Assembly: GCF_964204865.1 (NCBI RefSeq)
Contig: NC_135258.1
Coordinates: forward strand, 17,088,916-17,152,915
Length of the DNA: 64,000 nucleotides
Direction: 5' to 3'
Source of the DNA: Styela clava
Lineage: Eukaryota
Part shown: one piece after another, positions 1,722 to 64,000 of the stretch
Position numbering within the stretch: the first letter of the stretch is position 1
How the letters are laid out: each line of letters begins with the position of its first letter
Translations under genes and position numbers: made by a program
The notes under the pieces: generated by a model
Database searches by the model: none
Told to the model about the DNA's origin: nothing
What the model saw: only the letters and a program-made list of their open reading frames with translations

Positions 1722-1813
1722 CTAAAACAAACATACAAAGGAGGCTTCAGAAAATTGAAAAAGAGAGAGCGAGAGAGAGAGGGATGGTGGGTAGAGAGAT
1801 GGAAAAAACTTAC

Positions 1814-24300: not shown

Positions 24301-24361
24301 GACCACTACACTACGGAAAAACATCAGGGTCGGTTTCAAGCCGATTCGACGAACCACGGAT

Positions 24362-25180: not shown

Positions 25181-25388
25181 GATGTTTTGTACAAAACTTC
25201 CACCAATGCTTAAAAGGAGAAAATTAGTAATTATCCAGTTAAGAATGCATATTGCGCCAAACATGACAATTTTTATTCAATCCGAACCAACTGGATAATT
25301 ATAAATTTTTAATTTAAAACATGGCAGGATTGTTTCTATCAAATCTTACAATTTGTGTATTAGTGGCGGAGGCTTTGTACAAAAGATT
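25181..25388. mobile_element. MITE, same family (about 208 bp)
   Basis: The terminals gatgttttgtacaaaacttccacc ... ggcggaggctttgtacaaaagattc are inverted, and the internal block is the family's ccagtt...ggttcgg block in reverse-complement (ccgaaccaactggataatt). Confidence 0.5.
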
Positions 25389-25714
25389 CAATGAGATTTC
25401 CAATAAAATTTGAAAGCATGATCATGAATATGTTGCTAGCTTAATTCGTAAAGTGAGATCTTTTGAACTATGGGAGAAGTGAAACAAAAAAATAGCTTAC
25501 TTACGTTGGTAGGGAAAAATATCAGCCTTTGACATATAAATGCGAAATGTATATTGTATTCCAGACTGAGAAATCGGTGCCTTTTTATTAATAAAATTGC
25601 ATTCTTACCTATTCCGGGGATCGGTGAAGAATCAGCCACAAGGCAAACCTACAATTTAAGTTTTATATGTCCTGACTTCTTCAATTCACTTATTTTTATA
25701 CCCTGGTGACTCTC

Positions 25715-26035
25715 CTCTCTCTGGTTTCTGCGACTGACCCCGACTGGATGCCGTCCTTGCATGTTATAATTACCTGTGGTATCCGACTTCCTTCTTGTGT
25801 GTTGCCGGCGCTCTGTCTGTTTTGTGCCTGACCCCGTCCTGCTAACTTCAGTTCAGTAACTTCAGTTACTGGCTTTTTGATTTCCCTAAAGTGTTTTTGG
25901 GTACTCACTCTGCTTTCTGCCGCTGACCCGGACCTTCTTACTCTGCCTAGTTCACAACTAACTTCCTTCCCGTGTCATGGGGCACTCTGTCCTTCACACC
26001 CACTCAGCGCCAGATTAACCATTAAACAATATAAG
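25715..26035. repeat. Tandem pair of roughly 150-bp units (motif acttccttc..gtg....ggc.ctctgtc...ctgacccc) with related copies at 28385-28500, both next to GGGGCACCAA motifs
   Basis: The pairs ctctggtttctgcgactgaccccgac / ctctgctttctgccgctgacccggac and cttccttcttgtgtg / cttccttcccgtgtc / cttccttcctgtgc / cttccttggtgtg are seen by direct comparison. Confidence 0.4.
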
Positions 26036-26876
26036 CACGTGCTTGGGGCACCAAGCAAAGAGGGGCACCACAGAAACTTTCGAACAGAATTTTATATAGT
26101 TTATCGGTGTTTATTAAAATATTATGAGTTCACCAGACAACTCAAACTTCAAAATGTTTGCTTATTTTTTGTCTTCAAGTATCATTTTAACCTTCTTCAT
26201 TAAAAATAAACACTGAAACTTATTTATTGGACACGGAACGGCCTATGAGTCGTTTTTTTAAATTGTTGTTTTTTCTTCCTAATATTCTCCTTGTTGCTGC
26301 AATTTTGTTTTAAAAAAAAATTTTTTTTTCTACAACAATTGGACCAATGAACTATTTGCACTATATGGCGGTTCCACGACCGCATTTCAACGATCTAGTG
26401 GTCAGAGGAGTCGGGAGTTTTTTGGTAAGGTAGACCGGGGTGGTCCAAACCATGTCATGCTGACACATTTCGTGCTGCACACAGAACAATTTTAGCGTAT
26501 ATTTGTATCTAATAGCAGAACGCTTTTGAGTTTTTTTTTAGCTATTTCAACTGGGTTGGGATTCCGAGATTCAAACTCTTTTTTTCTAACGCTTTGTGCC
26601 TTTATTTTAGTAACAATACTCCTCTGTTTTCAAGCGTGGGCCATGTGCCAGTAGTGACGAAACGCAGAGCCGATTTAACGCCGCGCAATCCAGTTTTTTT
26701 TAGCTAGGTCCCGAAATACCAACTTCGACGGACTTGGTTGTTATTTGACGATGGCACTAAGCTTGCTCACGCTGCCAGTTTTTAAATTACCCAAATATAA
26801 CAATTGGTAATTAAATGCGGAAAACACGGCGGAAATTATTGCCCCTCATTCAGTGTCTGGTATAATTTCAGGTAAT

Positions 26877-27705
26877 ATATCGTCACGCTAATAACCGAAT
26901 TGCGTAAGTCATTTTTGGCGATTTTGAGTTTTTTATAAAATAGGTATTTATGTAATGCTGCGCACCTGTCTGTTAACTCAGATTTTATTTTAGGAATTTC
27001 GAAACCCCTAAAAATGGAGATTTAGTATGACATGCACATTTGTGCAATTATTTCGTCATACTGAATTATCCTTGTTACCGCAGTACTATTGTGACGTCAC
27101 AAAGGCAAAATAACCTCGGCGAAGTATTTTCGAGTTTTTGCATCTTGGATTCTAGCTTAGCGCGTATTAATTTGAATTTTTACTACAGTATAGGAAGATG
27201 TACACTTGTGATATTCACTGTCCGAGTCAAATTTACCTTGGTTGGCTTTTATATTGGGTGCATTGCTGTTTTATTCTTTATATTTAATCTTAGTCCTATT
27301 TCGGTGGGTGTGCAGAACGTGTTATATTGATGAAATATATATTTTTAAACATAAAAAATGATTTAATTGAAACTGATTAGCTATTTTGGGGATTAGACAT
27401 TGTAGATACTGAGAATTACATTCGTTTTTGGAATGTTTAGTTTTCAGGACTGGTGCATATAGTGAAGTTGCAAATTGCGTATGTCACCAAGTCATAGACA
27501 CATTTCTGCCTAAGTCACAGTGCGCCATTATGGCGTCACTTAACTGCGTCATACAAATTAACTTAAATCCGGCTACGATCAAAAAATTGAACCATGGCAA
27601 ATTATTGACTCTCAATTGCATAACAAAATCATTAGGAAGTTTTTTACGTTTTTCTCATAACTGCTAAAAATGACTTACGCAATTCGGTTATTAGCGTGAC
27701 GATAT
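26877..27705. mobile_element. Nonautonomous DNA transposon / MITE-like element bounded by a perfect 40-bp terminal inverted repeat (atatcgtcacgctaataaccgaattgcgtaagtcattttt)
   Basis: 26877-26916 is the exact reverse complement of 27666-27705. Similarity continues imperfectly for about 12 bp inward. The internal 750 bp has no transposase-like ORF. TSD is ambiguous (TA or ATAT). Confidence 0.6.
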
Positions 27706-30249
27706 GTTACGAATAAATATAGTTTGAAGCGACATTAAACGCGATGTGCGGAAAATACAACGGTAATTCCCGGGAATTAATTTTGAAATAACTGGAGGCT
27801 TTATATATCTTTTTTAAAAGAACGCGTCCAATGCAACATGATATTACTATGATCAGAACGGTAAACTCTCGTTAAATTTAAAGTTAAATGTAAAGTAAGT
27901 TAACTCGCGATATTTCTATCACTTTTGGGTTTTTTTCGACTTGCGGCCCGCGAGACCTTCTCAAAAGTTGTTGCGGCCCTTCAACCTCTCAACCTTGAAC
28001 CAGACAAAGTTAGATCACTAGGTACCGGTCAAATGTTAAACTACAACTGTGATTTATATCGTTTGGTATTTCGATTCACGTTGAGACTGGAGGCAGGAAT
28101 TTCTATTGTCACACTCTATCAGGATTAGAGCTCAACCGATATATCGGTCCGTTATTGGGTGTTTACCGATATATCATATCGGCAGTAAGCGGCTGATATT
28201 TTATAACAGTTAAAAAACCTAAAAATGTTCGTAAAAGTCGTTTTATTTACTGTTGGTTGTGATTATTTTTAATGAATAATAACTTATGTGGTTTATTGTT
28301 TTTTATGATTAAATTACACATAAGGGGGCACCAAAGTCTTCAGGGCTTAGGGCACCAAAAAGGCATATTCCGCCCCTGCACCTTGTTCCTGACTACCTTC
28401 CTGTGCTTTGGCCACTATGTCTGACCCTGGCCTGCTCTACATGGTTTACAACTTCCTTGGTGTGTTTCGGCCACTATGCCTGCGTTCTACCGCTGACCAC
28501 GTCTCTTGACCCACCGTCAAAATATCACTTAGCAGCTTTTCGTCGAGGATAATTCGGTAATTACCATGCTGCGTTCGTTTGCGCCGTAGCCTGTATGATG
28601 CACATGAAATAAATCCAACCAAGAGTGTAAAATCTTTCAACAAAAGTTTGTAAAGAAGGCCCTCTTGCCAGGTTACCAGTCCGTGTCAGTTATAGGGTAA
28701 ATCGGTTATGCTGTCCAGTTAGTCTAGTTATCAAACATAGAATCATTTATTGATGCAATCCAGTGATTTTGAATTTCTTTTATTGGTGAAGCATAACCCC
28801 AATGGAACATTTAAGAGGCTCGAGGAATCCAGTGCGATTGATTAGTTGTTTGAATGGCAGGCAACATATAGCAAATCTAATACAGACACAAAATGATTTT
28901 TATCCAAGTGTCGCAAGTTTTACAATAGTGGCAAATGTAATAGGATTACGAGTTGGGTTGCGCGAGACTAACTTACTATATTTTAAGATGTTGTTGACTA
29001 TAGGTCGAGTATTTCATGTATTTTTATAGTTTTTCTTGGCAGTTTAGTGTGGTGGCCTGTAACTTTGCTCAGAGATCGGTGTCCTTTATTTCTGAGTGAG
29101 TGCGCGTGATGTTATCAAGCTAGGCTTTTTCAGCTCATCCACCTATTAGACACTGAGTGTGCATATGGATTGTTACAAGTCAGTGAAACAAATATGCATT
29201 ATACAACTGGAGATCCAGAGTTCAGAGCTAAGTCGCGCTTATATGCAGATCCTAACCTAAACTAAAACCATAAAGGCACAAGTAAGCATTCTTACTGCTC
29301 CAACTTAAAATGGGCCGGAATCGCTTCTCTTGTGTTCTTCCTTAGCTTGGTAAGTTGGGAGAGAGCCTTCAAAGGATCAATGAAATTGTGCATGAATTAA
29401 CAAAATTCAACAGTCAATGTTATGGTTGACACGCATCATTCAACTGAGCCAAGTTTGGCAAATTTTTCCAACCAGTAGTAGCTAGACTAGCCCTACTCGT
29501 GGCCACAGTTATGAAGTTGAGACGTTGAGCCCTAGTTTTGTGAAGCTGATGACTTTATGTAAATGTTTAATCTATGGCTGCAAAAATGATATATCATGAG
29601 ATTTTTCCACCGGTAGTGGGAATGCATACAAAAAAAAACATCTCTTGCATAGGGCGTTCGCATAGGGCTAAATTGGTCGCCATGTCAATCACGCCATTGT
29701 GAAGTTGTCGCCCAACTAACGACCGTTGAATATCGCGTCACCGTCGGTCTAAAGCTGACTAACTTTTTGCGGGTGGTGGCATTTTCGTTAACCGTCGGCC
29801 TAGCTTTTTGATTGTCAAGTTCAATATCAAGTTTACAGCTTTTGGTTTTGCTGTAAAGCAACAAACCTCCAAGAACTGTACAGAGAGAACGGGATCGCAA
29901 GTGTTACCGTATTCATATTACTGGCAACAACACTATTTCCAACACATTTTTTGGGGTCATCGATACCTCTAACAATAGATCAAAATGACCAATGTCGTAG
30001 CATAGTTACGCTCTCTTATCGGCAAACGCATACGGTTTAATAGAGAAGGAGTAATCTCACTTTATGAAAATGTGATATTTTTGTGCACGATAGATGTGAT
30101 ATTCCAAAGTAATAAAAAGTTTATAACTTCTGCTCAATGATTTTAAAACAATGGTAGATCTCTAAAAAATGCCTACGTTTTATAAATCAGTTAATCGTGA
30201 TTAGAGGGATTCGTTTACAATTTTTGTTTCCGAAGGCCTGCAAAATACG

Positions 30250-30494
30250 GATCTTTTGTACAGAGCCTCCATTGCTAATGCAAAATGTGAAAAAAACCAC
30301 GTTCTGAAATAACAAGTTAGTAACTATCCAGTTGCGGTTCGGGTTAGGAATGATTTGAGGTTTTGAATTTCCGACGCAATCTGGATTCTTATCCCCCACC
30401 CACCCTAGAAATGTAATTGAAATATTTATAATTTACATTTAATTTTTTGAGCGAAGGCGGTGGTTTTTTATAAAGAATCTTCATACAAAGGATC
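30250..30494. mobile_element. MITE, 'GATCTTTTGTACAAAG' family copy (245 bp) with a 7/8-matching 8-bp TSD (CAAAATAC / CGAAATAC)
   Basis: The terminals ggatcttttgtacagagcctcc ... ggcggtgg...tacaaaggatcc are inverted. The internal block tatccagttgcggttcgggttaggaatgatttgagg is shared with the other family copies. Confidence 0.6.
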
Positions 30495-31060
30495 CCGAAA
30501 TACTTTCTGAGGCATTATCAACCAGAATTTTGCATATTAACGCGACACAAAATGTCATGAAGAAAGATTCGATAATGTGTAGGTTGATATTACCATTGGG
30601 GGAAAGGGTAAATCGTAACGAATCCTAAAATTTTTATGCAACTGTCGACGCAATTAGGCAGGCCACTCGTGAAAAGAGACCACTTTTTCGACAATTAATG
30701 TTTTTTACCGGTATGTTATGTTGTCGGTTAGCGATTTTGCAGTTGTGCAAAGTATTTCATTGGCGACCATAGTAGTCTATTTATAATTTATTATAAATTA
30801 AATATAAATATATAATGCGGCTGCGCCCACAAATTAAAAACATTACTATGATGAAATATCACTTCACATCCAATCAATCAATCTACCGCCATAAAAATGC
30901 TGTGGTATTCGAATGGAAATTCGGATCTCGAACATCCGAGCCGAGCGTTTATATTGCATTATATAATTGAATAACATCAGCTGTATGGATGCCGTTGTTC
31001 GTTTAGTAGATGAAAAACAACAGGTATCATACGGTAGCACAACTAAAAATTGTGCGGCCC

Positions 31061-31106
31061 GCTCACTCAGCGGTGACTGATAAAGTGGCCCGCGGCAGCA
31101 AATGGG
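31061..31106. mobile_element. Miniature hAT-derived remnant (cagcggtgac ... gtggcccgcgg ... gtcacccctg)
   Basis: A 10-bp inverted terminus matches the TIR and subterminal GC-rich motif of the 20488 hAT element. No clear TSD. Confidence 0.3.
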
Positions 31107-31554
31107 TTCGTCACCCCTGGTCTAAAGGATAATGGCAAAAGGTAAATTTTTCTTCCTCCACCCCTGCCTGGTTTTACTTTGAAATGTGAAAAAAATTACT
31201 CATGTTTGCTAAACTCGATTCTGCAGATAAATAAAAATAAAGTACTTCATTGTTACGTAACATTAAAGGCAAACACTACGCAATGAAAAGTAATCGACAT
31301 AGAAAGGTAAAATGAATTTATTGATTCATATACGCAGCATTTATATAAAAAAAAATATATATCCAATCATATTTTAGGTATGTTTAACACAATTCTGTTA
31401 GTTTTCGCGGCGCATTTGGCAACTCGCTGCATTACATCATTTTTCTTTATCAATTTCATTTTTGGTGTTCCGTGAGGCGACATAAAAATTGCGAATGTTC
31501 CGTGGCGAAAAAAGTTTGAGAAACGCTGGTTTAGGGTAGGGGTGGCGGGAGTAA

Positions 31555-31690
31555 GCCGCCGGCAATCCCCTGATACTAAATTATCGCCTACGGTATTCGA
31601 ACCTGCGAATCCAAGCGGGGTAAGAGATCAAGCGTATTCCTGAGGCTTAGCACGATGCGCCACTCAACGCGAACGACGTCAGCTGCAGTG
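31555..31690 (-). other. Degenerate tRNA-like sequence (type-II/Leu-like with GGTTCGAAT T-loop), probably a tRNA pseudogene or tRNA-derived SINE head. Not a functional tRNA.
   Basis: The minus strand reads GCGTTGAGTGGCGCATCGTGCTAAGCC...GATCTCTTACCCCGC...GCAGGTTCGAATACCGTAG. The T-stem and anticodon stem do not pair properly. A hAT-like end (caggggtgggcaac, 31745) is adjacent. Confidence 0.25.
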
Positions 31691-32651
31691 CACTGGCTGA
31701 CATAGATACTGAATACATTAAAATACGTGTATACCCTTACCCTGAATCAGGGGTGGGCAACTTATCTAGTCGACAGGCCAGATGTGAGAAAATGAAGTCC
31801 TCGGTGCGACGGATTATTACAAAAAATACTTCGGTATCCAATCGTTGTTAAATGCTCGACACTCTCTGTCAACTTTACGTTTCTTGGGATATTCCATGGT
31901 TAATAAAGTGCTTCATACGGACATAGGGTCTCCGCGATCTATTCGTTTACTCAAAATGGCATTAACAACATTTAAAAGGCAGCAAATACATCCGAGTTAT
32001 TAAATATAGTAATTTCAATTCACTCATTAATATTGATCGGTAAGTTAAAATTTGTTTTTGTTACCTTCTTATTGTGGGGTTACGTCAATAACAGTCCACC
32101 TCTTCACGAACTCCATAACACCAAATATTTGAATGGTCTCGAATAGATGATTTATATATTATCAGTTGTTGTCGTCGGTTTGCTCTTGTATTGAGCAGTC
32201 AATTATTTACTTCACATAGAACCGTGATTAATGCTGTTGCTGATGTTATGTTTCCGCCGTTTGGTTTGGGCGAAGAAATTACTATACAGTAGGCACCAAA
32301 ACAACTTCACATTATGACCTCCCTTTTTAAACGACATAGCCGGCACGTTTTTGTACGAAAACTTAAAATTATTCTTGGCTGCGCAAATCAATGAGCTAAG
32401 ATTTGTACGCCAATGCATAGAATGCATTGATATAACGCTAAACTTGTACACGCCGTTATTCTTTCATTGAGTTGTGGGAGGGTTACATTTTTGATGGCAT
32501 TCACGTGCGCGTTTACTCTACAAATATAAACAGACAAATATAATGGAATTGCTGGATTCTTTGTACTAAGCTCCCGTCACTGATGCAAAAGTGTGTGATC
32601 TGAGATAAACACCCCTGTCACGTTTTAAAATAAAAAATAAGTAAATATGCA

Positions 32652-42224: not shown

Positions 42225-43045
42225 CGACTTATACTTCCGTTGGTAGTCCCAGTAATCAATAACCATACGTTTCATGTTGATATGTGTTCAAAGCTGGCAA
42301 TCCTTGTTACTCCCAGTAATCATACAATTCATGTTGATACGTGTTCGAACCCGCAATCTTTGGTAGTCCAAGTAACCATACAATTCATATTCATAAGTGT
42401 TCAAAGCTGGCAATTCTTGGTAGTCCTAGAAACCACGCGTTTCATATTGATAAGTGTTCGAAGCTGGCAATATTTGGTAATCCAAGTAACCATACAATTC
42501 ATATTGAAAAGTGTTCGAAGCTGGCAATCCTTGGTAGTCCAAGTAACCATACGATTCATATTGATAAGTGTTCGAAGCTGGCAATCCTTGGTAGTCCAAG
42601 TAACCATACAGTTCATATTAATAAGTGTTCGAAGCTGGCAATCTTTGGTAATCCAAGTAACCATACAATTCATATTGATAAGTGTTCGAAGCTGGCAATT
42701 CATGGTAGTCCAAGTAACCATACGATTCATATTGATAAGTGTTCGAAGCTGGCAATTCATGGTAGTCCAAGTAACCATACAATTCATATTGATAAGTGTT
42801 CGAAGCTGGCAATTCATGGTAGTCCAAGTAACCATACGATTCATATTGATAAGTGTTCGAAGCTGGCAATCCTTGATAGTCCAAGTAACCATACAGTTCA
42901 TATTGATAAGTGTTTAAAGCTGGCAATTCTTGTTAGTCCAAGTAACCTTACTATTCATATTGATAAGTGTTAGAAGCAAGTAATCCTTGGTAGTCACTGT
43001 AATCATATGTTTCATGTTGATAAGTGTTCGAAGCTGGCAATATTC
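42225..43045. repeat. Minisatellite, 57-bp unit (aagctggcaatccttggtagtccaagtaaccatacaattcatattgataagtgttcg), about 14 tandem copies
   Basis: The motif aagctggcaa recurs at 57-bp spacing (42461, 42518, and so on through 43031). Degenerate relatives of the unit flank the array (41980-42200, 43230-43480, 40340). Confidence 0.9.
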
Positions 43046-48789: not shown

Positions 48790-51700
48790 AATTCTTACGA
48801 TTTACGTTATTCTTATATTTTTATTGCTGTTATTATATGTTACTGATTTGTGAATTATATTATTGTTTATTACTGATATTGTATATTTTAATGAGCTTTT
48901 TTGTAATATGCAGTTTCCATATCTTATTTATATCTATCTTATTTGCTGTAGTCATTATTTTCTATTGTATTTTTTGAGATATTTTCAACAGGAAAACAAG
49001 ATATCGTGCCAACGACAATGGAAGAAAAGTATTAACAGGGCTTGCCATAGCTTTTTTTGAATATTTTTTCATTGTAGATAGATTTAGACCCATCCCCGCC
49101 ATTAGGAATAATAGGGATTTTATTAGGCTTAGATATTTTTAATGTTATTCTAGCTTCTCAGGCACAGAACTATGAAGACACTGGAAAAATCAAGAAAATA
49201 CGAATAGAAGGAAAATCTACAAATTACATGTAAATATTTTTTAAATTTTAGGAGACTTAGGTATTTTTAATGGTATTCTAGCTTCTCAGGCCCAGAATTA
49301 TGAAGAAGTGAGAAAACGACTGATACAAGGAAACAATGAAGAAATTAAGAGAAAACTGAAACAAGGAAAATCTACAAATTGAATGTAAATATTTTTTACA
49401 AATTTTATTAGGCTTAGATATTGTTAATAATATTTTAGCTTCTCAGGCACAGAATTTTAAAGGTACTGAAGAAATTGAAAGAAGACGGAGCCAGAGACAA
49501 ATACCGGTAAATATGTTACATTTGTTTCATTAGGCAGACTTACTATTTCCATTTAGTGTTCATTTCCATTTTAATTCGATATAATATTTTTCTGATTATA
49601 TTATTACTGACACAATAATGCACAAAGTATTATGTTTATTGCTGGCATTCAATATTTATTTAATAAAGCTTTTTTTAGTAATATGCTGTATCCATACTTA
49701 CCTATCTTATTTGTTATAATCAATATTTTCTCTTCTATTTTTGAGATATTTTCAACTGGAAACGATATCGTGACACCAACAAAAGAAGAAAAGTATTAAC
49801 AGGGCTCGCTATGGCTTTTTTGTTTTTAATATTTTATTTGTTATAGATAGATTAGTCCCAATCCCTCCATTAAAAATAATAGGGTTTTTAATAGGCTTAG
49901 ATATTTTTAATGTTATTCCAGCTTCTCAGGCACACAACTATGAAGACGCTGGAAAAATCAAGAAAAGACGAATAGAAGGAAAATCTACAAATTACATGTA
50001 ACCATTTTTCGAATTTTATGTGGCTTAGATATTTTTAATGGTATTCTAGATTCTCAGGCACAGAATTATGAAGAAGTAAGAAAAAAGACTGATACAAGGA
50101 AACAACGAAGAAATTAGGAAAAAACTGAAACAAGGAAAATCTACAAATTGAATGTAAATATTTTTACAAATTTTATTAGGCTTAGATATTGTTAATAATA
50201 TTTTAGCTTCTCAGACACAGAATTTAAAAGGTACTGAAGAAATTGAAAGAAGACGGAATCAGAGACAAATACCGGAAAATTTGTTACATTTGTTTCATTA
50301 GACAGACTTACTATTTCCATTTAGTGTTCATTTCCATTTTAATTCGATATAATATTTTAGATAGGGCTTAGATTTAGGCTTAGATATATTTAATGTTATT
50401 CTAGTTTCTCAGGCACACAACTATGAAGACACTGGAAAAATCAAGAGAAGACGAATAGAAGGAAAATCTACAAATTACATGTAAATATTTTTCGAATTTT
50501 ATGAGGCTTAGGTCTTTTTAATGGTAATCTAGCTTCTCAGGCACAGAATTATGAAGAAGTAAGTAAAAAGACTGATACAAGGAAACAATGAAGAAATTAG
50601 GAAAGAACTGAAACAAGGAAAATCTACAAATTGAATGTAAATATTTTTACAAATTTTATTAGGCTTTGATATTGTTAATAATATTTTAGCTTCTCAGGCA
50701 CAGAATTTTAAAGGTACTGAAGTAATTGAAAGAAGACGGAACCAGAGACAAATACAGGTAAATATGTTACATTTGTTTCATTAGGCAGACTTACTACTTC
50801 CATTTAGTGTTCTTTTCCATTTTAATTCGATATAATATTTTTCTGATTATATTATTACTGATGCAATAATGCACCAGGTATTATGTTTATTGCTGGCATT
50901 CCATATTTATTAAGAAAGCTTTTTTTGGTAATATGCTGTATCCATACTTACCTATCTTCTTTGTTATAATCAATATTTTCTCTTCTATTTTTGAGATATT
51001 TTCAACTGGAAACGATATCGTGACACCAACAAAAGAAGAAAAGTATTAACACGGCTCGCCATGGCTTTTTTGTTTTTAATATTTTATTTGTTATAGATAG
51101 AATAGTCCCAATCCCTTCATTAGGAATAATAGGGTTTTTAATAGGCTTAGATATTTTTAATGTTATTCTGGCATCTCAGGCACACAACTATGAAGACACT
51201 GGAAAAATCAAGAAAAGACGAATAGAAGGAAAATCTACAAATTACATGTATGAGGCTTAGATCTTTTAAATGGTAATCTAGCTTCTCGGGCACAGAATTA
51301 TGAAGAAGTAAATGAAAAGACTTATACAAGGAAACAATGAAGAAATTAGGAAAAGACTGAAACAAGGAAAATCTACAAATTGAATGTAAATATTTTTACA
51401 AATTTTATTAGGCTTTGATGTTGCTAATATTTTCTTAGCTTCTCAGGCACAGAATTTTGAAGGCACTGAAGAAATTGAAAGAGGACGAAACCAGAGACAG
51501 ATCTAAAATACCGGTAAATTTGTTCCATTAGGCAGGCTGACTTTTTCCATTTAGTGTTCATTTTGATTTTATTTCGATATAATATTTTTCTAATTATATT
51601 ATTACTGATACAATAATGCACCAAGTATTATATTTATTGCTGGCATTTAATATTCATTAATAAAGCTTTTTAGTAGTATGCTGTATCCATACTTGCCTAT

Positions 51701-54700
51701 CTTATTTGTTATAATCATTATTTTCTCTTCTGTTTTTGAGATATTTTCAACTGGAAATGATATCGTGACACCAACAAAAGAAGAAAAGTATTAACAGGGC
51801 TCGCCATGGATTTTTTGTTTTTAATATTTCATTTGTTATAGATAGATTAGTCCCAATCCCTCCATTAGGAATATTAGGGTTTTTAATAGGCTTAGATATA
51901 TTTAATGTTATTCTAGTTTCTCAGGCACACAACTATGAAGACACTGGAAAAATCAAGAAAAGACGAATAGAAGGAAAATCTACAAATTACATGTAAATAT
52001 TTTTCGAATTTTATGAGGCTTAGATCTTTTTAATGGTAATCTAGCTTCTCAGGCACAGAATTATGAAGAAGTAAGTAAAAAGACTGATACAAGGAAACAA
52101 TGAAGAAATTAGGAAAGAACTGAAACAAGGAAAATCTACAAATTGAATGTAAATATTTTTACAAATTTTATTAGGCTTTGATATTGTTAATAATATTTTA
52201 GCTTCTCAGGCAAAGAATTTTAAAGGTACTGAAGAAATTGAAAGAAGACGAAACCAGAGACAAATACCGGTAAATATGTTACATTTGTTTCATTAGGCAG
52301 ACTTACTATTTCCATTTAGTGTTCATTTCCATTTTTATTCGATATAATATTTTTCTGATTATATTATTACTGATACAATAATGCACCAAGTATTATGTTT
52401 ATTGCTGGCATTTCATATTTATTAAGAAAGCTTTTTTTGATAATATGCTGTATCCATACTTACCTATCTTCTTTGTTATAATCAATATGTTCTCTTCTAT
52501 TTTTGAGATATTTTCAACTGGAAACGATATCGTGACACCAACAAAAGAAGAAAAGTATTAACACGGCTCGCCATGACTTTTTTGTTTTTAATATTTTATT
52601 TGTTATAGATAGAATAGTCCCAATCCCTCCATTAGGAATAATAGGGTTTTTAATAGGCTGAGATATTTTTAATGTTATTCTGGCATCTCAGGCACACAAC
52701 TATGAAGACACTGGAAAAATCAAGAAAAGACGAATAGAAGGAAAATCTACAAATTACATGTATGAGGCTTAGATCTTTTAAATGGTAATCTAGCTTCTCG
52801 GGCACAGAATTATGAAAAAGTAAAGAAAAGACTTATACAAGGAAACAAGGAAGAAATTAGGAAAAGACTGAAACAAGGAAAATCTACAAATTGAATGTAA
52901 ATATTTTTACAAATTTTATTAGGCTTTGATGTTGTTAATATTTTCTTAGCTTCTCAGGCACAGAATTTTGAAGGCACTGAAGAAATTGAAAGAGGACAAA
53001 ACCAGAGACAGATCTAAAATACCGGTAAATATGTTACATTTGTTCCATTAGGCAGGCTGACTTTTTCCATTTAGTTTTCTTTTTGATTTTATTTCGATAT
53101 AATATTTTTCTAATTATACTATTACTGATACAATAATGCACCAAGTATTATATTTATTGCTGGCATTTAATATTTATTAATAAAGCTTTTTAGTAGTATG
53201 CTGTATCCATACTTGCCTATCTTATTTGTTATAATCATTATTTTCTCTTCTGTTTTTGAGATATTTTCAACTGGAAACGATATCGTGACACCAACAAAAG
53301 AAGAAAAGTATTAACACGGCTCGCCATGACTTTTTTGTTTTTAATATTTTATTTGTTATAGATAGAATAGTCCCAATCCCTCCATTAGGAATAATAGGGT
53401 TTTTAATAGGCTGAGATATTTTTAATGTTATTCTGGCATCTCAGGCACACAACTATGAAGACACTGGAAAAATCAAGAAAAGACGAATGGAAGGAAAATC
53501 TACAAATTACATGTATGAGGCTTAGATCTTTTAAATGGTAATCTAGCTTCTCGGGCACAGAATTATGAAGAAGTAAAGAAAAGACTTATACAAGGAAACA
53601 AGGAAGAAATTAGGAAAAGACTGAAACAAGGAAAATCTACAAATTGAATGTAAATATTTTTACAAATTTTATTAGGCTTTGATGTTGTTAATATTTTCTT
53701 AGCTTCTCAGGCACAGAATTTTGAAGGCACTGAAGAAATTGAAAGAGGACAAAACCAGAGACAGATCTAAAATACCGGTAAATATGTTACATTTGTTCCA
53801 TTAGGCAGGCTGACTTTTTCCATTTAGTTTTCATTTTGATTTTATTTCGATATAATATTTTTCTAATTATACTATTACTGATACAATAATGCACCAAGTA
53901 TTATATTTATTGCTGGCATTTAATATTTATTAATAAAGCTTTTTAGTAGTATGCTGTATCCATACTTGCCTATCTTATTTGTTATAATCATTATTTTCTC
54001 TTCTGTTTTTGAGATATTTTCAACTGGAAACGATATCGTGACACCAACAAAAGAAGAAAAGTATTAACAGGGCTCGCCATGGATTTTTTGTTTTTAATAT
54101 TTCATTTGTTATAGATAGATTAGTCCCAATCCCTCCATTAGGAATAATAGGGTTTTTAATAGGCTTAGATATATTTAATGTTATTCTAGTTTCTCAGGCA
54201 CACAACTATGAAGACACTGGAAAAATCAAGAAAAGACGAATAGAAGGAAAATCTACAAAAAACATGTAAATATTTTTCGAATTTTATGAGGCTTAGATTT
54301 TTTCAATGGTAATCTAGCTTCTCAGGCACAGAATTATGAAGAAGTAAGTAAAAAGACTGATACAAGGAAACAATGAAGAAATTAGGAAAGAACTGAAACA
54401 AGGAAAATCTACAAATTGAATGTAAATATTTTTACAAATTTATTAGGCTTAGATATTGTTAATAATATTTTAGCTTCTCAGGCACAGAATTTTAAAGGTA
54501 CTGAAGAAATTGAAAGAAGACGAAACCAGAGACAAATACCGGTAAAAATGTTACATTTGTTTCATTAGGCAGACTTACTATTTCCATTCAGTGTTCATTT
54601 CCATTTTTATTCGATATAATATTTTTCTGATTATATTATTACTGATACAATAATGCACCAAGTATTATGTTTATTGCTGGCATTCCATATTTATTAAGAA

Positions 54701-57700
54701 AGCTTTTTTTGGTAATATGCTGTATCCATACTTACCTATCTTCTTTGTTATAATCAATATTGTCTCTTCTATTTTTGAGATATTTTCAACTGGAAACGAT
54801 ATCGTGACACCAACAAAAGAAGAAAAGTAATAACACGGCTCGCCATGGCTTTTTTTGTTTTTAATATTTTATTTGTTATAGATAGAATAGTCCCAATCCC
54901 TCCATTAGGAATAATAGGGTTTTTAATAGGCTTAGATATTTTTAATGTTATTCTGGCATCTCAGGCACACAACTATGAAGACACTGGAAAAATCAAGAAA
55001 AGACGAATAGAAGGAAAATCTACAAATTACATGTATGAGGCTTAGATCTTTTAAATGGTAATCTAGCTTCTCGGGCACAGAATTATGAAGAAGTAAAGAA
55101 AAGACTTATACAAGGAAACAATGAAGAAATTAGGAAAAGACTGAAACAAGGAAAATCTACAAATTGAATGTAAATATTTTTACAAATTTTATTAGGCTTT
55201 GATGTTGTTAATATTTTCTTAGCTTCTCAGGCACAGAATTTTGAAGGCACTGATGAAATTGAAAGAGGACGAAACCAGAGACAGATCTAAAATACCGGTA
55301 AATATGTTACATTTGTTCCATTAGGCAGGCTGACTTTTTCCATTTAGTGTTCATTTTGATTTTATTTCGATATAATATTTTTCTAATTATATTATTACTG
55401 ATACAATAATGCACCAAGTATTATACTTATTGCTGGCATTTAATATTTATTAATAAAGCTTTTTAGTAGTATGCTGTATCCATACTTGCCTATCTTATTT
55501 GTTATAATCATTATTTTCTCTTCTGTTTTTGAGATATTTTCAACTGGAAACGATATCGTGACACCAACAAAAGAAGAAAAGTATTAACACGGCTCGCCAT
55601 GGCTTTTTTGTTTTTAATATTTTATTTGTTATAGATAGAATAGTCCCAATCCCTCCATTAGGAATAATAGGGTTTTTAATAGGCTTAGATATTTTTAATG
55701 TTATTCTGGCATCTCAGGCACACAACTATGAAGACACTGGAAAAATCAAGAAAAGACGAATAGAAGGAAAATCTACAAATTACATGTATGAGGCTTAGAT
55801 CTTTTAAATGGTAATCTAGCTTGTCGGGCACAGAATTATGAGGAAGTAAAGAAAAGACTTATACAAGGAAACAATGAAGAAATTAGGAAAAGACTGAAAC
55901 AAGGAAAATCTACAAATTGAATGTAAATATTTTTACAAATTTTATTAGGCTTTGATGTTGTTAATATTTTCTTAGCTTCTCAGGCACAGAATTTTGAAGG
56001 CACTGAAGAAATTGAAAGAGGACGAAACCAGAGACAGATCTAAAATACCGGTAAATATGTTACATTTGTTCCATTAGGCAGGCTGACTTTTTCCATTTAG
56101 TGTTCATTTTGATTTTATTTCGATATAATATTTTTCTAATTATATTATTACTGATACAATAATGCACCAAGTATTTTATTTATTGCTGGCATTTAATATT
56201 TAATAATAAAGCTTTTTAGTAGTATGCTGTATCCATACTTGCCTATCTTATTTGTTATAATCATTATTTTCTCTTCTGTTTTTGAGATATTTTCAACTGG
56301 AAACGATATCGTGACACCAACAAAAGAAGAAAAGTATTAACAGGGCTCGCCATGGATTTTTTGTTTTTAATATTTCATTTGTTATAGATAGATTAGTCCC
56401 AATCCCTCCATTAGGAATAATAGGGTTTTTAATAGGCTTAGATATTTTTAATGTTATTCTAGTTTCTCAGGCACACAACTATGAAGACACTGGAAAAATC
56501 AAGAAAAGACGAATAGAAGGAAAATTTACAAATTACATGTAAATATTTTTCGAATTTTATGAGGCTTAGATATTGTTAATGGTATTCTAGCTTATCAGGC
56601 ACAGAATTATGAAGAAGTAAGAAAAAAGACTGATACAAGGAAACAATGAAGAAATTAGGAAAAGAATGAAACAAAGAAAATCTACAAATTGAATGTAAAT
56701 ATTTTTACAAATTTTATTAGGCTTTGATGTTGTTAATATTTTCTTAGCTTCTTAGGCACAGGATTTTGAGGGCACTGAAGAAATTGAAAGAAGACGAAAC
56801 CAGAGAAAAATCTAAAATACCGGTAAATATGTTCCATTTGTTCCATTAGACAGGCTGACTTTTTCCATTTAGTGTTCATTTTGATTTTAATTCAATATAA
56901 TATTTTTCTAATTATATTATTACTGATACAATAATGCACCAAGTATTATGTTTATTGCTGGCATTTAATATTTATTAATAAAGCTTTTTATAGTAATATG
57001 CTGAATCCATACTTACCTATTTTATTTGTTATAATCAATATTTTCTCTTCTATTTTTGAGATATTTTCAACTGGAAACGATATCGTGACACCAACAAAAG
57101 AAGAAAAGTATTGACACGGCTCGCCATGGCTTTTTTGTTTTTAATATTTTATTTGTTATAGATAGAATAGTCCCAATCCCTCCATTAGGAATAATAGGGT
57201 TTTTAATAGGCTTAGATATATTTAATGTTATTCTAGTTTCTCAGGCACACAACTATGAAGACACTGGAAAAATCAAGAAAAGACGAATAGAAGGAAAATC
57301 TACAAATTACATGTAAATATTTTTCGAATTTTATGAGGCTTAGATCTTTTTAAATGGTAATCTAGCTTCTCAGGCACAGAATTATAAAGAAGTAAGTAAA
57401 AAGACTGATACAAGGAAACAATGAAGAAATTAGGAAAGAACTGAAACAAGGAAAATCTACAAATTGAATGTAAATATTTTTACAAATTTTATTAGGCTTA
57501 GATATTGTTAATAATATTTTAGCTTCTCAGGCACAGAATTTTAAAGGTACTGAAGAAATTGAAAGAAGACGAAACCAGAGACAAATACCGGTATATATGT
57601 TACATTTGTTTCATTAGGCAGACTTACTATTTCCATTTAGTGTTCATTTCCATTTTTATTCGATATAATATTTTTCTGATTATATTATTACTGATACAAT

Positions 57701-60700
57701 AATGCACCAAGTATTATGTTTATTGCTGGCATTCCATATTTATTAAGAAAGCTTTTTTTGGTAATATGCTGTATCCATACTTACCTATCTTCTTCGTTAT
57801 AATCAATATTTTCTCTTCTATTTTTGAGATATTTTCAACTGGAAACGATATCGTGACACCAACAAAAGAAGAAAAGTATTAACACGGCTCGCCATGGCTT
57901 TTTTGTTTTTAATATTTTATTTGTTATGGATAGAATAGTCCCAATCCCTCCATTAGGAATAATAGAGTTTTTAATAGGCTTAGATATTTTTAATGTAATT
58001 CTGGCATCTCAGGCACACAACTATGAAGACACTGGAAAAATCAAGAAGAGACGAATAGAAGGAAAATCTACAAATTACATGTATGAGGCTTAGATCTTTT
58101 AAATGGTAATCTAGCTTCTCGGGCACATAATTATGAAGAAGTAAAGAAAAGACTTATACAAGGAAACAATGAAGAAATTAGGAAAAGACTGAAACAAGGA
58201 AAATCTACAAATTGAATGTAAATATTTTTACAAATTTTATTAGGCTTTGATGTTGTTAATATTTTCTTAGCTTCTCAGGCACAGAATTTTGAAGGCACAG
58301 AAGAAATTGAAAGAGGACGAAACCAGAGACAGATCTAAAACACCGGTAAATATGTTACATTTGTTCCATTAGGCAGGCTGACTTTTTCCATTTAGTGTTC
58401 ATTTTGATTTTATTTCGATATAATATTTTTCTAATTATATTATTACTGATACAATAATGCACCAAGTATTATGTTTATTGCTGGCATTTAATATTTATTA
58501 ATAAAGCTTTTTAGTAGTATGCTGTATCCATACTTGCCTATCTTATTTGTTAAAATGAATATTTTCTCTTCTATTTTTGAGATATTTTCAACTGGAAACG
58601 ATATCGTGACACCAACAAAAGAAGAAAAGTATTAACAGGGCTCGCCATGGATTTTTTGTTTTTAATATTTTATTTGTTATAGATAGATTAGTCCCAATCC
58701 CTACATTAGGAATAATAGGGTTTTTGATAGGCTTAGATATTTTTAATGTTATTCTAGCTTCTCAGGCACACAACTATGAAGACACTGGAAAAATCAAGAA
58801 AAGACGAATAGAAGGAAAATCTACAAATTACATGTAGATATTTTTCGAATTTTATGATACTTAGATATTTTTAATGGTATTCTAGCTTCTCAGGCACAGA
58901 ATTATAAAGAAGTAAGAAAAAAGACTGATTCAAGGAAACAATGAAGAAATTAGGAAAGAACTAAAACAAGGAAAATCTACAAATTGAATGTAAATATTTT
59001 TAAAAATTTTATTAGGCTTAGATATTGTTAATAATATTTTAGCTTCTCAGGCACTGAATTTTAAAGGTACTGAAGAAATTGAAGGAAGACGGAGCCAGAG
59101 ACAAATACCGGTAAATATGTTACATTTGTTTCATTAGACAGACTTACTATTTACATTTAGTGTTCATTTCCTATTTAATTCGTTAGAATATTTTTCTGAT
59201 TATATTATTACTGATACAATAATGCACCAAGTATTATGTTTATTGCTGGCATTCAATATTTATTAATAAAGCTTTTTTTGGTAATATGCTGTATCCATAC
59301 TTACCTATTTTATTTGTTATAATCAATATTTTCTCTTCTATTTTTGAGATATTTTCAACTGGAAACGATATCGTGACACCCACAAAAGAAGAAAAGTATT
59401 AACACGGCTCGCCATGGCTTTTTTGTTTTTAATATTTTATTTGTTATAGATAGAATAGTCCCAATCCCTCCATTAGGAATAATAGGGTTTTTATCAGGCT
59501 AAGATATATTTAATGTTATTCTAGTTTCTCAGGCACACAACTATGAAGACACTGGAAAAATCAAGAAAAGACGAATAGAAGGAAAATCTACAAATTACAT
59601 GTAAATATTTATCGAATTTTACGAGGCTTAGATCTTTTTAATGGTAATCTAGCTTCTCAGGCACAGAATTATAAAGAAGTAAGAAAAAAGACTGATTCAA
59701 GGAAACAATGAAGAAATTAGGAAAGAACTAAAACAAGGAAAATCTACAAATTGAATGTAAATATTTTTACAAATTTTATTAGGCTTAGATATTGGTAATA
59801 ATATTTTAGCTTCTCAGGCACTGAATTTTAAAGGTACTGAAGAAATTGAAGGAAGACGGAGCCAGAGACAAATACCGGTATATATGTTACATTTGTTTCA
59901 TTAGACAGACTTACTATTTACATTTAGTGTTCATTTCCATTTTAATTCGTTAGAATATTTTTCTGATTATATTATTACTGATACAATAATGCACCTAGTA
60001 TTATGTTTATTGCTGGCATTCAATATTTATTAATAAAGCTTTTTTTAGTAATATGTTGTATCCATACTTACCTATTTTATTTGTTATAATCAATATTTTC
60101 TCTTCTATTTTTGAGATATTTTCAACTGGAAACGATATCGTGACACCAACAAAAGAAGAAAAGTATTAACACGGCTCGCCATGGCTTTTTTGTTTTTAAT
60201 ATTTTATTTGTTATAGATAGAATAGTCCTAATCCCTCCATTAGGAATAATAGGGTTTTTAATAGGCTTAGATATTTTTAATGTTATTCTGGCATCTCAGG
60301 CACACAACTATGAAGACACTGGAAAAATCAAGAAAAGACGAATAGAAGGAAAATCTACAAATTACATGTATGAGGCTTAGATCTTTTAAATGGTAATCTA
60401 GCTTCTCGGGCACAGAATTATGAAGAAGTAAAGAAAAGACTTATACAAGAAAACAATGAAGAAATTTAAGAAAAGACTGAAACAAGGAAAATCTACAAAT
60501 TGAATGTAAATAATTTTACAAATTTTATTAGGCTGTGATGTTGTTAATATTTTCTTAGCTTCTCAGGCACAGAATTTTGAAGGCACTGAAGAAATTGAAA
60601 GAGGACGAAACCAGAAACAGATCTAAAATACCGGTAAATATGTTACATTTGTTCCATTAGGCAGGCTGACTTTTTCCATTTAGTGTTCATTTTGATTTTA

Positions 60701-63700
60701 TTTCGATATAATATTTTTCTAATTATATTATTACTGATACAATAATGCACCAAGTATTATGTTTATTGCTGGCATTTAATATTTATTAATAAAGCTTTTT
60801 AGTAGTATGCTGTATCCATACTTGCCTATCTTATTTGTTATAATCATTATTTTCTCTTCTGTTTTTGAGATATTTTCAACTGGAAACGATATCGTGACAC
60901 CAACAAAAGAAGAAAAGTATTAACAGGGCTCGCCATGGATTTTTTGTTTTTAATATTTCATTTGTTATAGATAGATTAGTCCCAATCCCTCCATTAGGAA
61001 TAATAGGGTTTTTAATAGGCTTAGATATTTTAAATGTTATTCTAGTTTCTCAGGCACACAACTATTAAGACACTGGAAAAATCAAGAAAAGACGAATAGA
61101 AGGAAAATCTACAAATTACATGTAAATATTTTTCGAATTTTATGAGGCTTAGATCTTTTTAATGGTAAACTAGCTTCTCAGGCACAGAATTATGAAGAAG
61201 TAAGAAAAAAGACTGATACAAGGAAACAATGAAGAAATTAGGAAAGAACTGAAACAAGGAAAATCTACAAATTGAATGTAAATATTTTACAAATTTTATT
61301 AGGCTTAGATATTGTTAATAATATTTTAGCTTCTCAGGCACAGAATTTTAAAGGTACTGAAGAAATTGAAAGAAGACGGAACCAGAGATAAATACCGGTA
61401 AATATGTTACATTTGTTTCATTAGGCTGACTTACTATTTCCATTTAGTGTTCATTTCCATTTTAATTCGATATAATATTTTTCTGATTATATTATTACTG
61501 ATACAATAATGCACCAAGTATTATGTTTATTGCTGGCATTCCATATTTATTAAGATAGCTTTTTTTGGTAATATGCTGTATCTATACTTACCTTTTCTTT
61601 GTTATAATCAATATTTTCTCTTCTATTTTTGATATATTTTCAACTGGAAACGATATCGTGACACCAACAAAAGAAGAAAAGTATTAACACGGCTCGCCAT
61701 GGCTTTTTTGTTTTTAATATTTTATTTGTTATAGATAGAATAGTCCCAATCCCTCCATTAGGAATAATAGGGTTTTTAATAGGCTTAGATATTTTTAATG
61801 TTATTCTGGCATCTCAGGCACACAACTATGAAGACACTGAAAAAATCAAGAAAAGACGAATAGAAGGAATATCTACAAATTACATGTAAATAATTTTCGA
61901 ATTTTATGAGGCTTACATCTTCTCAATGGTAATCTAGCTTCTCAGGCACAGAATTATGAAGAAGTAAGAAAAAAGACTGATACAATAAAAACAATGAAGA
62001 AATTAGGAGAAGACTGAAACAAGGAAAATCTACAAATTGGATGTAAATATTTTTACAAATTTTATTAGGCTTTGATGTTGTTAATATTCTCTTAGCTTCT
62101 CAGGCACAGAATTTTGAAGGCACTGAAGAAATTGAAAGAGGACGAAACCAGAGACAGATCTAAAATACCGGTAAATATGTTACATTTGTTCCATTAGGCA
62201 GGCTGACATTTTCCATTTAGTGTTCATTTTGATTTTATTTCGATATAATATTTTTCTAATAATATTATTACTGATACAATAATGCACCAAGTATTATGTT
62301 TATTGCTGGCATTTAATATTTATTAATAAAGCTTTTTAGTAGTATGCTGTATCCATACTTGCCTATCTTATTTGTTATAATCATTATTTTCTCTTCTATT
62401 TTTGAGATATTTCCAACTGGAAACGATATCGTGACACCAACAAAAGAAGAAAAGTATTAACAGGGCTCGCCATGGATTTTTTGTTTTTAATATTTCATTT
62501 GTTATAGATAGAATAGTCCCAATCCCTCCATTAGGAATAATAGGGTTTTTAATAGGCTTAGATATTTTTGATGTTATTCTGGCATCTCAGGCACACAACT
62601 ATGAAGACACTGGAAAAATCAAGAAAAGACGAATAGAAGGAATATCTACAAATTACAAGTAAATATTTTTCGAATTTTATGAGGCTTAGATCTTTTTAAA
62701 TGGTAATCTAGCTTCTCAGGCACAGAATTATAAAGAAGTAAGTAAAAAGACTGATACAAGGAAACAATGAAGAAATTAGGAAAGAACTGAAACAAGGAAA
62801 ATCTACAAATTGAATGTAAATATTTTTACAAATTTTATTAGGCTTAGATATTGTTAATAATATTTTAGCTTCTCAGGCACAGAATTTTAAAGGTACTGAA
62901 GAAATTGAAAGAAGACGAAACCAGAGACAAATACCGGTATATATGTTACATTTGTTTCATTAGGCAGACTTACTATTTCCATTTAGTGTTCATTTCCATT
63001 TTTATTCGATATAATATTTTTCTGATTATATTATTACTGATACAATAATGCACCAAGTATTATGTTTATTGCTGGCATTCCATATTTATTAAGAAAGCTT
63101 TTTTTGGTAATATGCTGTATCCATACTTACCTATCTTCTTCGTTATAATCAATATTTTCTCTTCTATTTTTGAGATATTTTCAACTGGAAACGATATCGT
63201 GACACCAACAAAAGAAGAAAAGTATTAACACGGCTCGCCATGGCTTTTTTGTTTTTAATATTTTATTTGTTATGGATAGAATAGTCCCAATCCCTCCATT
63301 AGGAATAATAGAGTTTTTAATAGGCTTAGATATTTTTAATGTAATTCTGGCATCTCAGGCACACAACTATGAAGACACTGGAAAAATCAAGAAGAGACGA
63401 ATAGAAGGAAAATCTACAAATTACATGTATGAGGCTTAGATCTTTTAAATGGTAATCTAGCTTCTCGGGCACATAATTATGAAGAAGTAAAGAAAAGACT
63501 TATACAAGGAAACAATGAAGAAATTAGGAAAAGACTGAAACAAGGAAAATCTACAAATTGAATGTAAATATTTTTACAAATTTTATTAGGCTTTGATGTT
63601 GTTAATATTTTCTTAGCTTCTCAGGCACAGAATTTTGAAGGCACAGAAGAAATTGAAAGAGGACGAAACCAGAGACAGATCTAAAACACCGGTAAATATG

Positions 63701-64000
63701 TTACATTTGTTCCATTAGGCAGGCTGACTTTTTCCATTTAGTGTTCATTTTGATTTTATTTCGATATAATATTTTTCTAATTATATTATTACTGATACAA
63801 TAATGCACCAAGTATTATGTTTATTGCTGGCATTTAATATTTATTAATAAAGCTTTTTAGTAGTATGCTGTATCCATACTTGCCTATCTTATTTGTTAAA
63901 ATGAATATTTTCTCTTCTATTTTTGAGATATTTTCAACTGGAAACGATATCGTGACACCAACAAAAGAAGAAAAGTATTAACAGGGCTCGCCATGGATTT
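48790..64000. repeat. Complex satellite / tandem array, about 20 monomers of roughly 735-775 bp, continuing past the window end. Each monomer is three related 110-130-bp sub-repeats (core gcttctcaggcaca[gc]aa[ct]t) plus a roughly 390-bp unique segment.
   Basis: The marker ctcgccatgg recurs at 49803, 51056, 51790, 52566, 53310, 54073, 54838, 55589, 56345, 57118, 57888, 58641, 59405, 60175, 60925, 61691, 62464, 63236 and 63987. Two monomer body types differ by a 17-bp indel (acatgtaaatatttttcgaattttatgagg versus acatgtatgagg). The first two monomers (48790-51050) are more diverged, and one carries an internal ABC duplication. Confidence 0.92.

Follow-up and report, generated by a model that had tools for sequence, protein, structure and literature searches.

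The window, by which we mean the whole 64,000-bp stretch of Styela clava DNA that was analyzed, ends in a tandem array that begins at approximately position 48800. Roughly 33 kb separate the start of the array from an intact gene. The composition of the flank is unremarkable, with 34% G+C compared with 29% in the array. The array is built of 19 full monomers of 745-774 bp, one shortened monomer of 483 bp, and a partial copy at each edge. The coordinates of these units and of features within them are collected in Table 1.

Table 1. Features of the tandem array, in window coordinates.
Feature	Position	Strand	Basis or description
Left edge, diverged partial monomer tail	48800..48971	+	~70% identity to monomer positions 592-767 (blastn)
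Monomer m01, 767 bp, old L-like copy	48972..49738	+	93.3% identity to L consensus
m02 interval, 1250 bp	49739..50988	+	L-like monomer (96%) plus 483-bp shortened monomer
Monomers m03-m19	50989..63920	+	Identity matrix, type consensus sequences, diagnostic-site patterns
Sub-repeat A, example in m04, 128 bp	51881..52008	+	Consensus self-blast, MAFFT
Sub-repeat B, example in m04, 157 bp	52009..52165	+	Consensus self-blast, MAFFT
Sub-repeat C, example in m04, 128 bp	52166..52293	+	66-67% identity to A and B
Mosaic monomer m10, 774 bp	56280..57053	+	5' L type with 18-bp segment, 3' S type with 7-bp insertion
1342-bp exact duplication, first copy	57313..58654	+	Exact-repeat search
Mosaic monomer m17, 773 bp	61627..62399	+	S-L-S pattern
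1342-bp exact duplication, second copy	62659..64000	+	Exact-repeat search; 5346 bp (7 monomers) downstream of the first
Start of 20th anchored monomer	63921..64000	+	Clipped by window end

Organization of the tandem array

The monomers were delimited with an 18-mer anchor, TTTTGAGATATTTTCAAC, which occurs 20 times between 48972 and 63921 at a spacing of 745-774 bp. The single exception is an interval of 1250 bp, which holds a full monomer together with the shortened 483-bp monomer. Distances between identical fourteen-mers peak at 753 and 767 bp. The monomers lie head to tail without spacer, and their alignment is unbroken across all junctions. The visible array thus measures at least 15.2 kb, or approximately 20 units, and is open-ended at position 64000; because the 20th monomer is clipped there, the array extends past the window. 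The initial annotation had described a monomer of roughly 760 bp, repeated about 20 times and running off the window, and the anchors, their spacing and the 14-mer peaks bear this out far beyond chance. The start that it gave, position 48790, is also correct, since a blastn search of the type consensus against positions 1-49000 found no match beyond the left edge of the array and thus no other monomer sequence in 1-48800.

The shortened monomer consists of the three sub-repeats A, B and C with approximately 70 bp of spacer, and lacks about 284 bp of the unit. Within the m02 interval the 483-bp copies are paired, at approximately 49884-50366 and 50367-50849, and TRF reports a period of 483 with 2.0 copies and 94% matches at 49892-50841. 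Toward the edge the copies are more diverged, as had been proposed: identity rises from 70% in the partial copy through 93% in m01 and 96% in m02 to 98-99% further in. In the interior, most copies match the consensus of their own type at 98.4-99.6%. Off-consensus copies nevertheless occur there too, namely m13 and m14 (at 96%), along with the two mosaics, m10 and m17.

Each monomer combines internal sub-repeats of approximately 128 bp with about 350 bp of unique flanking sequence. The sub-repeat core, GCTTCTCAGGCACAGAAT, has 60 matches, three per monomer. Sub-repeat C is 128 bp and sub-repeat B is 157 bp, while sub-repeat A measures 128 bp in one monomer type (L) and 110 bp in the other (S) because of an 18-bp deletion. 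In a MAFFT alignment, A and B are 81% identical, A and C 66%, and B and C 67%. Sub-repeat B corresponds to an A-like unit with an internal duplication of period ~37 bp, for a net gain of 29 bp. An ending motif, AAGGAAAATCTACAAATT..ATGTAAAT, was matched 32 times where 0 matches were expected; it is found in every B, in A only of the long-type monomers, and in no C. The initial annotation had put all three sub-repeats at 110-130 bp with a common ending. Three units per monomer sharing a core, and the sizes of A and C, agree with that description, whereas B is longer; the ending holds for every B and for the long-type A, but C lacks it.

Monomer types and probable exchange between them

The monomers fall into two main types, S (753 bp) and L (767 bp), which differ by 42 substitutions and by indels of 18, 1, 7 and 2 bp, and are 92-94% identical to one another. 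The S type includes m03, m05, m06, m08, m09, m12, m15 and m19, and the L type m04, m07, m11, m16 and m18; m13 and m14 are older L-like copies. Two types with linked substitutions had been noted before, although the indel that was said to separate them as 17 bp is in fact 18 bp. From the third monomer onward the order is S L S S L S S (hybrid) L S. This matches the order recorded earlier as II, I, II, II, I, II, II, I, I, II, but the interleaving does not seem purely irregular, given a weak three-monomer periodicity.

This higher-order periodicity, of approximately 2.3 kb, amounts to 1-2 percentage points and is interrupted in the window. Here monomers three apart are 95.7% identical, compared with 94-94.8% at other lags (shuffle P=0.06). 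A public contig that carries the same repeat, ENA contig ERZ26858995:ctg112026_4x_c (7117 bp; hereafter L001), gives 97.9% against 96.1-96.4% (shuffle P=0.002). The S type stands at every third position from m03 to m15, and in L001 at x03, x06 and x09.

Two monomers are mosaics of the types. In m10, L gives way to S between 56632 and 56663, and m17 switches at 61811-61885 and again at 61979-62011, the second being the same interval as in m10. This L-to-S switch, at monomer positions 353-384, is common to m10, m17 and the L001 monomers x01, x04, x05 and x07. Short S tracts are also carried by the 5' ends of m11, m14 and m18. The second copy of the 1342-bp exact duplication reaches the end of the window, so the duplication may be longer.

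An independent contig

The one independent contig that turned up, L001, consists entirely of S, L and mosaic monomers of this satellite, at least nine of them full, in an order that differs from that of the window; aligned colinearly, it matches the window at 95.5% at best. It may represent a different part of this array or the allele of another individual. Other routes to further sequence gave nothing: two conserved monomer motifs had 0 exact-pattern matches in JGI metagenome contigs, array ORFs of 55 aa and 38 aa, as a route to further satellite contigs, are not on record in the contig index, and neither are the MFSD8-like ORF and the NCBI protein P0001, which would have served for chromosome walking.

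The contig bears on whether the array was produced by the assembler, either by expansion of one or a few copies or by collapse of a larger array. Tandem repeats are error-prone in long-read assemblies, and the second copy of the 1342-bp exact duplication stops exactly where the window does; for this perfect duplicate a local assembly error is conceivable. The 19 monomers are not identical, however, but differ by type-linked structured variants, mosaics and private substitutions, and single-base indels within a type are few. The same subfamilies also recur, in another order and in at least nine monomers, on L001, from an independent assembly, which argues against an artefact and makes this explanation of the array very improbable.

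Coding potential

Several features of the sub-repeats resemble exons. Under a reading as repeated exons or as tandem mini-genes, a short exon would correspond to each sub-repeat and specify a membrane-anchor-like segment together with a charged tail (e.g. ...PPLGIIGFLIGLDIFNVILASQAHNYEDTGKIKKRRIEGKSTNYM). Splice-site-like borders, ttctag/CTTCTCAGG ... ACAT/gtaaat, place a pyrimidine tract and AG before the core and GTAAAT after it; most monomers contain an open frame of 75-78 codons, and a gene caller predicted a 66-aa ORF on the independent contig. The open frame designated ORF-A spans 75 codons in DNA of 29% G+C. Against these features, the ORFs through the cores are cut short in m05, m06, m14 and m16, and the 1-bp and 7-bp indels between types break the frame in B and C. 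The three codon positions carry similar numbers of variants (21/23/17, 13/12/13 and 14/9/9), the synonymous fraction is 0.15-0.26 where 0.21 is expected at random, and six variants are stop gains. The frame conservation and purifying selection on codons expected of a repeated-exon gene were thus not found.

Homology searches gave the same picture. The 164-aa concatenated translation had no match at E<=1 among 5.8 billion proteins. The neighboring MFSD8-like gene is 100% identical to its S. clava entry at NCBI. When ORF-A was searched with phmmer against 1.84 billion representatives, the only matches were the ORF of the satellite itself (P0101) and three giant repetitive proteins (E ~2e-4), which we judge to be spurious; no parent gene for the monomer was therefore identified in that search. 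Coding exons were rejected on the frame breaks, the codon-position spectrum and the missing homologues, and a protein-coding array is highly unlikely. A candidate upstream gene running into the array was rejected as a translated 57-bp minisatellite without a homologous protein. With its splice-like borders and the 75-codon ORF-A, the array may nevertheless be transcribed, including in a non-coding RNA role.

RNA genes and transposable elements

Small RNA genes are often arranged in tandem units of 0.3-1 kb, and ascidians use spliced-leader trans-splicing, so that genes for 5S rRNA, snRNA, spliced-leader RNA or tRNA could form an array of this kind. Rfam had 0 matches in the whole window at the gathering threshold and 0 on two monomers at E<=1, and ARAGORN found 0 tRNAs. 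The Ciona spliced-leader sequence, ATTCTATTTGAATAAG, was not found in the array even when 3 mismatches were allowed. With Rfam (twice), ARAGORN and the leader motif all negative, an RNA gene array was rejected and is extremely unlikely.

The units may alternatively derive from a transposable element, either non-autonomous or Helitron-like with internal tandem repeats, which was then amplified in tandem. Complex monomers with sub-repeats and a unique portion, such as this one, resemble satellites born from these elements in other invertebrates. The monomer has no terminal inverted repeats or poly-A, however, and its units have no spacer between them; the only dyad symmetry in it consists of weak A+T-rich pairs. 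No transposase-like ORF was found, and the other 48.8 kb of the window hold no dispersed copy or fragment. Judged from the window, this origin is improbable.

Chromosomal setting

A centromeric, pericentromeric or subtelomeric location had been suggested for the array, but nothing in the window supports one. The telomere repeat TTAGGGTTAGGG ((TTAGGG)n) was not found in or next to the array within the window with up to 1 mismatch. The only matches to the telomere motif, at 16961 and 17065, are part of a small inverted repeat. The CENP-B-box pattern TTCGNNNNANNCGGG is likewise absent from the array when 1 mismatch is allowed, and this box is not universal outside mammals. The ratio of observed to expected CpG is 0.52-0.56 in the monomer compared with 1.09 in the flank, and CpG sites in the monomer are 1.8 times as variable as other sites. 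In ascidians, DNA methylation is regarded as largely confined to gene bodies. In the searchable literature we came across no defined centromere sequence for any tunicate. There is a minor possibility that this satellite, methylated in the germline, belongs to the centromere of a Styela clava chromosome or otherwise forms heterochromatin.

Discussion

The array very likely represents a non-coding satellite family of the ascidian Styela clava, with a complex monomer of approximately 760 bp that is homogenized by recombination. It is a long, many-copy, head-to-tail array, it is non-coding, and its copies are homogenized with subfamilies and recombinants. The original reading as a satellite is upheld by the analysis of monomers, sub-repeats and types, by the non-coding tests, and by the independent contig with the same satellite. 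We infer that it is DNA without a sequence-specific product.

The monomer itself probably arose by triplication of a unit of approximately 128 bp. Where monomers misalign, unequal crossing-over and gene conversion would allow the array to grow and shrink while keeping its copies alike. Signs of such exchange are the mosaics with their common switch interval, the short S tracts, the 483-bp monomer, the 1342-bp duplicate and the identity peak at lag 3. The same exchange probably gave rise to the homogenized S and L subfamilies and to the amplified L/S recombinant subfamily, as well as to the weak three-monomer higher-order unit and the recent multi-monomer duplications. Copies at the edge would have drifted because exchange reaches the edge of an array less often.

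By general class, the array is similar to the complex-monomer satellites of other animals, which are likewise arranged head to tail without spacer, A+T-rich and internally sub-repeated, with homogenized subfamilies, diverged edges and no coding capacity. As in the higher-order repeats of primate alpha satellite, neighboring monomers tend to be less alike than those three apart; the alpha satellite monomer, however, is ~171 bp rather than ~760 bp, and the periodicity here is weak, interrupted and without a CENP-B box. In Botryllus schlosseri, also of the Styelidae, tandem repeats have been put forward as putative centromeres on the basis of CentroMiner output and Hi-C (PMC12448946). These too are tandem-repeat arrays in a styelid ascidian genome, and the Botryllus region is ~1 Mb compared with the at least 15 kb visible in Styela clava. 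Satellites of this kind are common, and this is ordinary sequence with nothing pointing to a new mechanism.

Satellite DNA and centromere sequences of tunicates are hardly covered in the searchable literature; we found in it no description of a satellite from Styela clava or any ascidian, and the ~760-bp repeat seems to be undescribed so far. The 753/767-bp satellite can serve directly as a probe, both in FISH and in mapping of the centromeric histone in Styela clava. Its subfamilies can be told apart at diagnostic sites, and it further shows a shared recombinant subfamily along with a higher-order tendency of ~2.3 kb; the array is also a small, clean case for the study of how unequal exchange shapes an array.

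Extent and anatomy of the array

The satellite array at the right end of the window is real. Recurring 14-mers are nearly absent up to ~48750, except in a 57-bp minisatellite (see table), and from 49250 on they fill 70-100% of nearly all 250-bp bins (58% in one bin), the commonest distances being 753 and 767 bp. An 18-mer anchor, TTTTGAGATATTTTCAAC, occurs 20 times across 48972-63921 at spacings of 745-774 bp, save for one 1250-bp interval, which TRF and direct reading resolve into a full monomer and a 483-bp truncated monomer that keeps sub-repeats A, B and C with ~70 bp of spacer and is missing ~284 bp. The stretch just before that anchor's first copy, 48800-48970, matches the monomer tail with only 70% identity, and 1-48800 has no other monomer-like sequence; the start at 48790 proposed in the initial annotation is thus correct, and the array is open-ended at the window end, as was also claimed. 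G+C is 31-40% per 2-kb window over the first 48.8 kb (34% overall) and falls to 28-30% in the last 15 kb, where GC skew is steadily positive.

The core GCTTCTCAGGCACAGAAT is found 60 times in the array, or three times per monomer, and self-comparison of the consensus delimits sub-repeats of 128 bp (A), 157 bp (B) and 128 bp (C). The earlier description of three sub-repeats of 110-130 bp therefore fits A and C but not B, which resembles A and in addition has an internal duplication of ~37-bp period (TRF, 1.9 copies). Identity is 81% between A and B and 66-67% for A-C and B-C, and the ~350 bp beside the sub-repeats is without internal repetition within the unit. The ending motif thought to be common to all three (32 matches versus 0 expected) is present in every B and in the A of long-type monomers only, and is absent from C.

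Monomer types, mosaics and higher-order structure

All-against-all comparison of the monomers, numbered m01-m19 from left to right, separates a short type, S, of 753 bp (m03, m05, m06, m08, m09, m12, m15, m19) from a long type, L, of 767 bp (m04, m07, m11, m16, m18), with 98.4-99.6% identity to the own type consensus and 92-94% between types. Between the two consensus sequences there are 42 substitutions and four indels, of 18, 1, 7 and 2 bp, so that two types do exist as proposed, with the supposed 17-bp indel being one of 18 bp accompanied by three others. Starting at m03, the monomers run S L S S L S S H L S L' L' S L H' L S, in agreement with the initial annotation, where H and H' are mosaic monomers (m10, m17) and L' denotes older L-like copies (m13 and m14, 96% to L); m01 (93%) and m02 (96%) are also older L-like copies. 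Identity rises inward from the array edge, from 70% through 93% and 96% to 98-99%.

Monomer m10 is of type L through monomer position 353 and of type S from 384 (a switch within 56632-56663 of the window). Monomer m17 has the pattern S-L-S with its L-to-S switch in the same interval, and short S tracts are found at the 5' ends of m11, m14 and m18. When the longest ORF of the array served as query in a sensitive protein search, one real match came back, a 66-aa ORF (P0101) that m08 encodes exactly; the other phmmer matches were repetitive giants only, at E about 2e-4. The locus of P0101 is a 7117-bp ENA metagenome-assembly contig, ERZ26858995:ctg112026_4x_c (L001), which is this satellite throughout, with 10 anchors spaced 752-777 bp apart. 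Besides S and L monomers it carries four mosaics of the m10 kind, with their switch in m10's interval. The satellite thus occurs in an independent data set, and the L/S recombinant forms a third, amplified subfamily of it. Monomer order in L001 is unlike that of every window stretch, the best colinear match having 95.5% identity.

Since L001 consists entirely of Styela satellite, it presumably represents host DNA inside a metagenome data set. Its record name ends in "_c", which might, speculatively, denote a circular contig; closure would then be out of monomer phase (68 bp of tail and 142 bp of head), which would point, no less speculatively, to a repeat-caused graph cycle rather than a real circle.

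Interleaving of the types had been described as irregular, and it is not purely so, since identity by lag peaks at lag 3 and S recurs at every third place. In the window the lag-3 peak is 95.7% versus 94-94.8% at lags 1, 2 and 4 (order-shuffling P=0.06), and in L001 it is 97.9% versus 96.1-96.4% (P=0.002); S occupies every third position across m03-m15, and in L001 it is found at x03, x06 and x09. This three-monomer periodicity is weak, and a higher-order unit of ~2.3 kb is likely. An exact repeat of 1342 bp (57313-58654 and 62659-64000), with copies 5346 bp or seven monomers apart, runs up to the window end. It stems either from very recent segmental duplication within the array or from a local problem in the assembly.

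Coding and RNA-gene interpretations

The sub-repeats look exon-like, with a pyrimidine tract and AG ahead of the core and GTAAAT behind it, and one array frame yields an ORF of 75-78 codons. A coding array was nevertheless rejected on frame breaks, frame-shifting indels, a random variant spectrum and lack of homologues. The ORFs are cut short in m05, m06, m14 and m16, and the 1-bp and 7-bp S/L indels shift the B and C frames. Variants among copies are even across codon positions (21/23/17, 13/12/13, 14/9/9), their synonymous fraction of 0.15-0.26 equals random expectation (0.21), and six make stops; the 164-aa concatenated translation, compared with 5.8 billion proteins, has no match at E<=1. 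An array of known RNA genes was likewise rejected: Rfam gave nothing at gathering threshold for the whole window and nothing at E<=1 for two monomers, no tRNAs were found, and the Ciona spliced-leader sequence was unmatched in the array. Telomere repeats and CENP-B-like boxes are also absent from the array, as is any marked dyad symmetry.

Other features of the window

Features of the window outside the satellite array
Feature	Position	Strand	Details
Exon-like ORFs, two sets	81-3000, 6563-9489	-	endonuclease/exonuclease/phosphatase-family motifs (e.g. ...GSDHLPVTVTFNLKN, ...ADIVTLQEV)
MFS transporter ORF, intronless, MFSD8-like	14235-15656	+	Pfam MFS_1, E 1.3e-34
150-bp foldback	16944-17093		40-nt arms, 93% complementary, 70 nt between
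Higher-G+C block	24000-32000		G+C 36-40% vs 31-35% elsewhere
68-nt inverted repeat pair in the block	26861-26928, 27654-27721		85% complementary
57-bp minisatellite	42260-43041		13.7 copies, 87% matches

The transporter ORF is 100% identical to an NCBI S. clava protein (P0001), encoded on a 23.5-Mb sequence, and has many S. clava paralogues at 42-50% identity. Its continuous frame is 473 aa versus 501 aa in the NCBI model, which probably has an additional N-terminal exon or upstream start. The two exon-like sets are probably paralogous multi-exon genes; one fragment matches Pfam Exo_endo_phos at E 5.8e-4, short of the curated cut-off. Five of the six minisatellite frames are open, and the plus-strand frame at 42338-42970 encodes a 19-aa repeat, SPSNHTIHIDKCSKLAILG, matching the beta-helix repeat families CAP_C (Pfam, E 3.5e-13) and TBCC. 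The Pfam match is probably inflated by repetition, and at E<=1e-5 the 5.8-billion-protein database contains no protein homologous to the translation. Both foldback arms hold TTAGGGTTAGGC, a telomere-like dimer, and the foldback may be a small mobile element of the inverted-repeat kind. The higher-G+C block may be a decayed mobile element; the single long ORF tested from it (25832-26200) matched no Pfam family.

Origin and setting of the satellite

The initial annotation suggested that the array could be centromeric, pericentromeric or subtelomeric DNA. On its visible (left) side the array adjoins sequence of ordinary character, and the distance to an intact gene is 33 kb. CpG observed/expected is 0.52-0.56 in the monomer consensus, and in the flank (1-48790) it averages 1.09 (sd 0.24), with all 253 overlapping 760-bp windows at 0.57 or more. 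Variability is 1.8 times as frequent in alignment columns with a CpG as in the rest (Fisher P=0.015). The depletion is possibly a footprint of germline methylation, which is only a lead because the array amounts to repeated sampling of one sequence and shows no TpG excess.

From established models of satellite evolution, we infer that the array would have been shaped by misaligned units undergoing unequal crossing-over and gene conversion. Expected products of these processes include homogenised subfamilies, a recombinant subfamily with one common breakpoint, short tracts resembling conversion, a unit with a deletion, exact duplication of several monomers and lag-3 periodicity, each of which is observed here, and the edge-inward identity gradient suggests that homogenisation is weaker at the array border. 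Our literature search found no satellite description for Styela clava or another ascidian, and satellites go unmentioned in the S. clava genome paper; for Botryllus, one article mentions putative centromeric monomers (PMC12448946). The array is a seemingly undescribed satellite of a well-known sequence kind.
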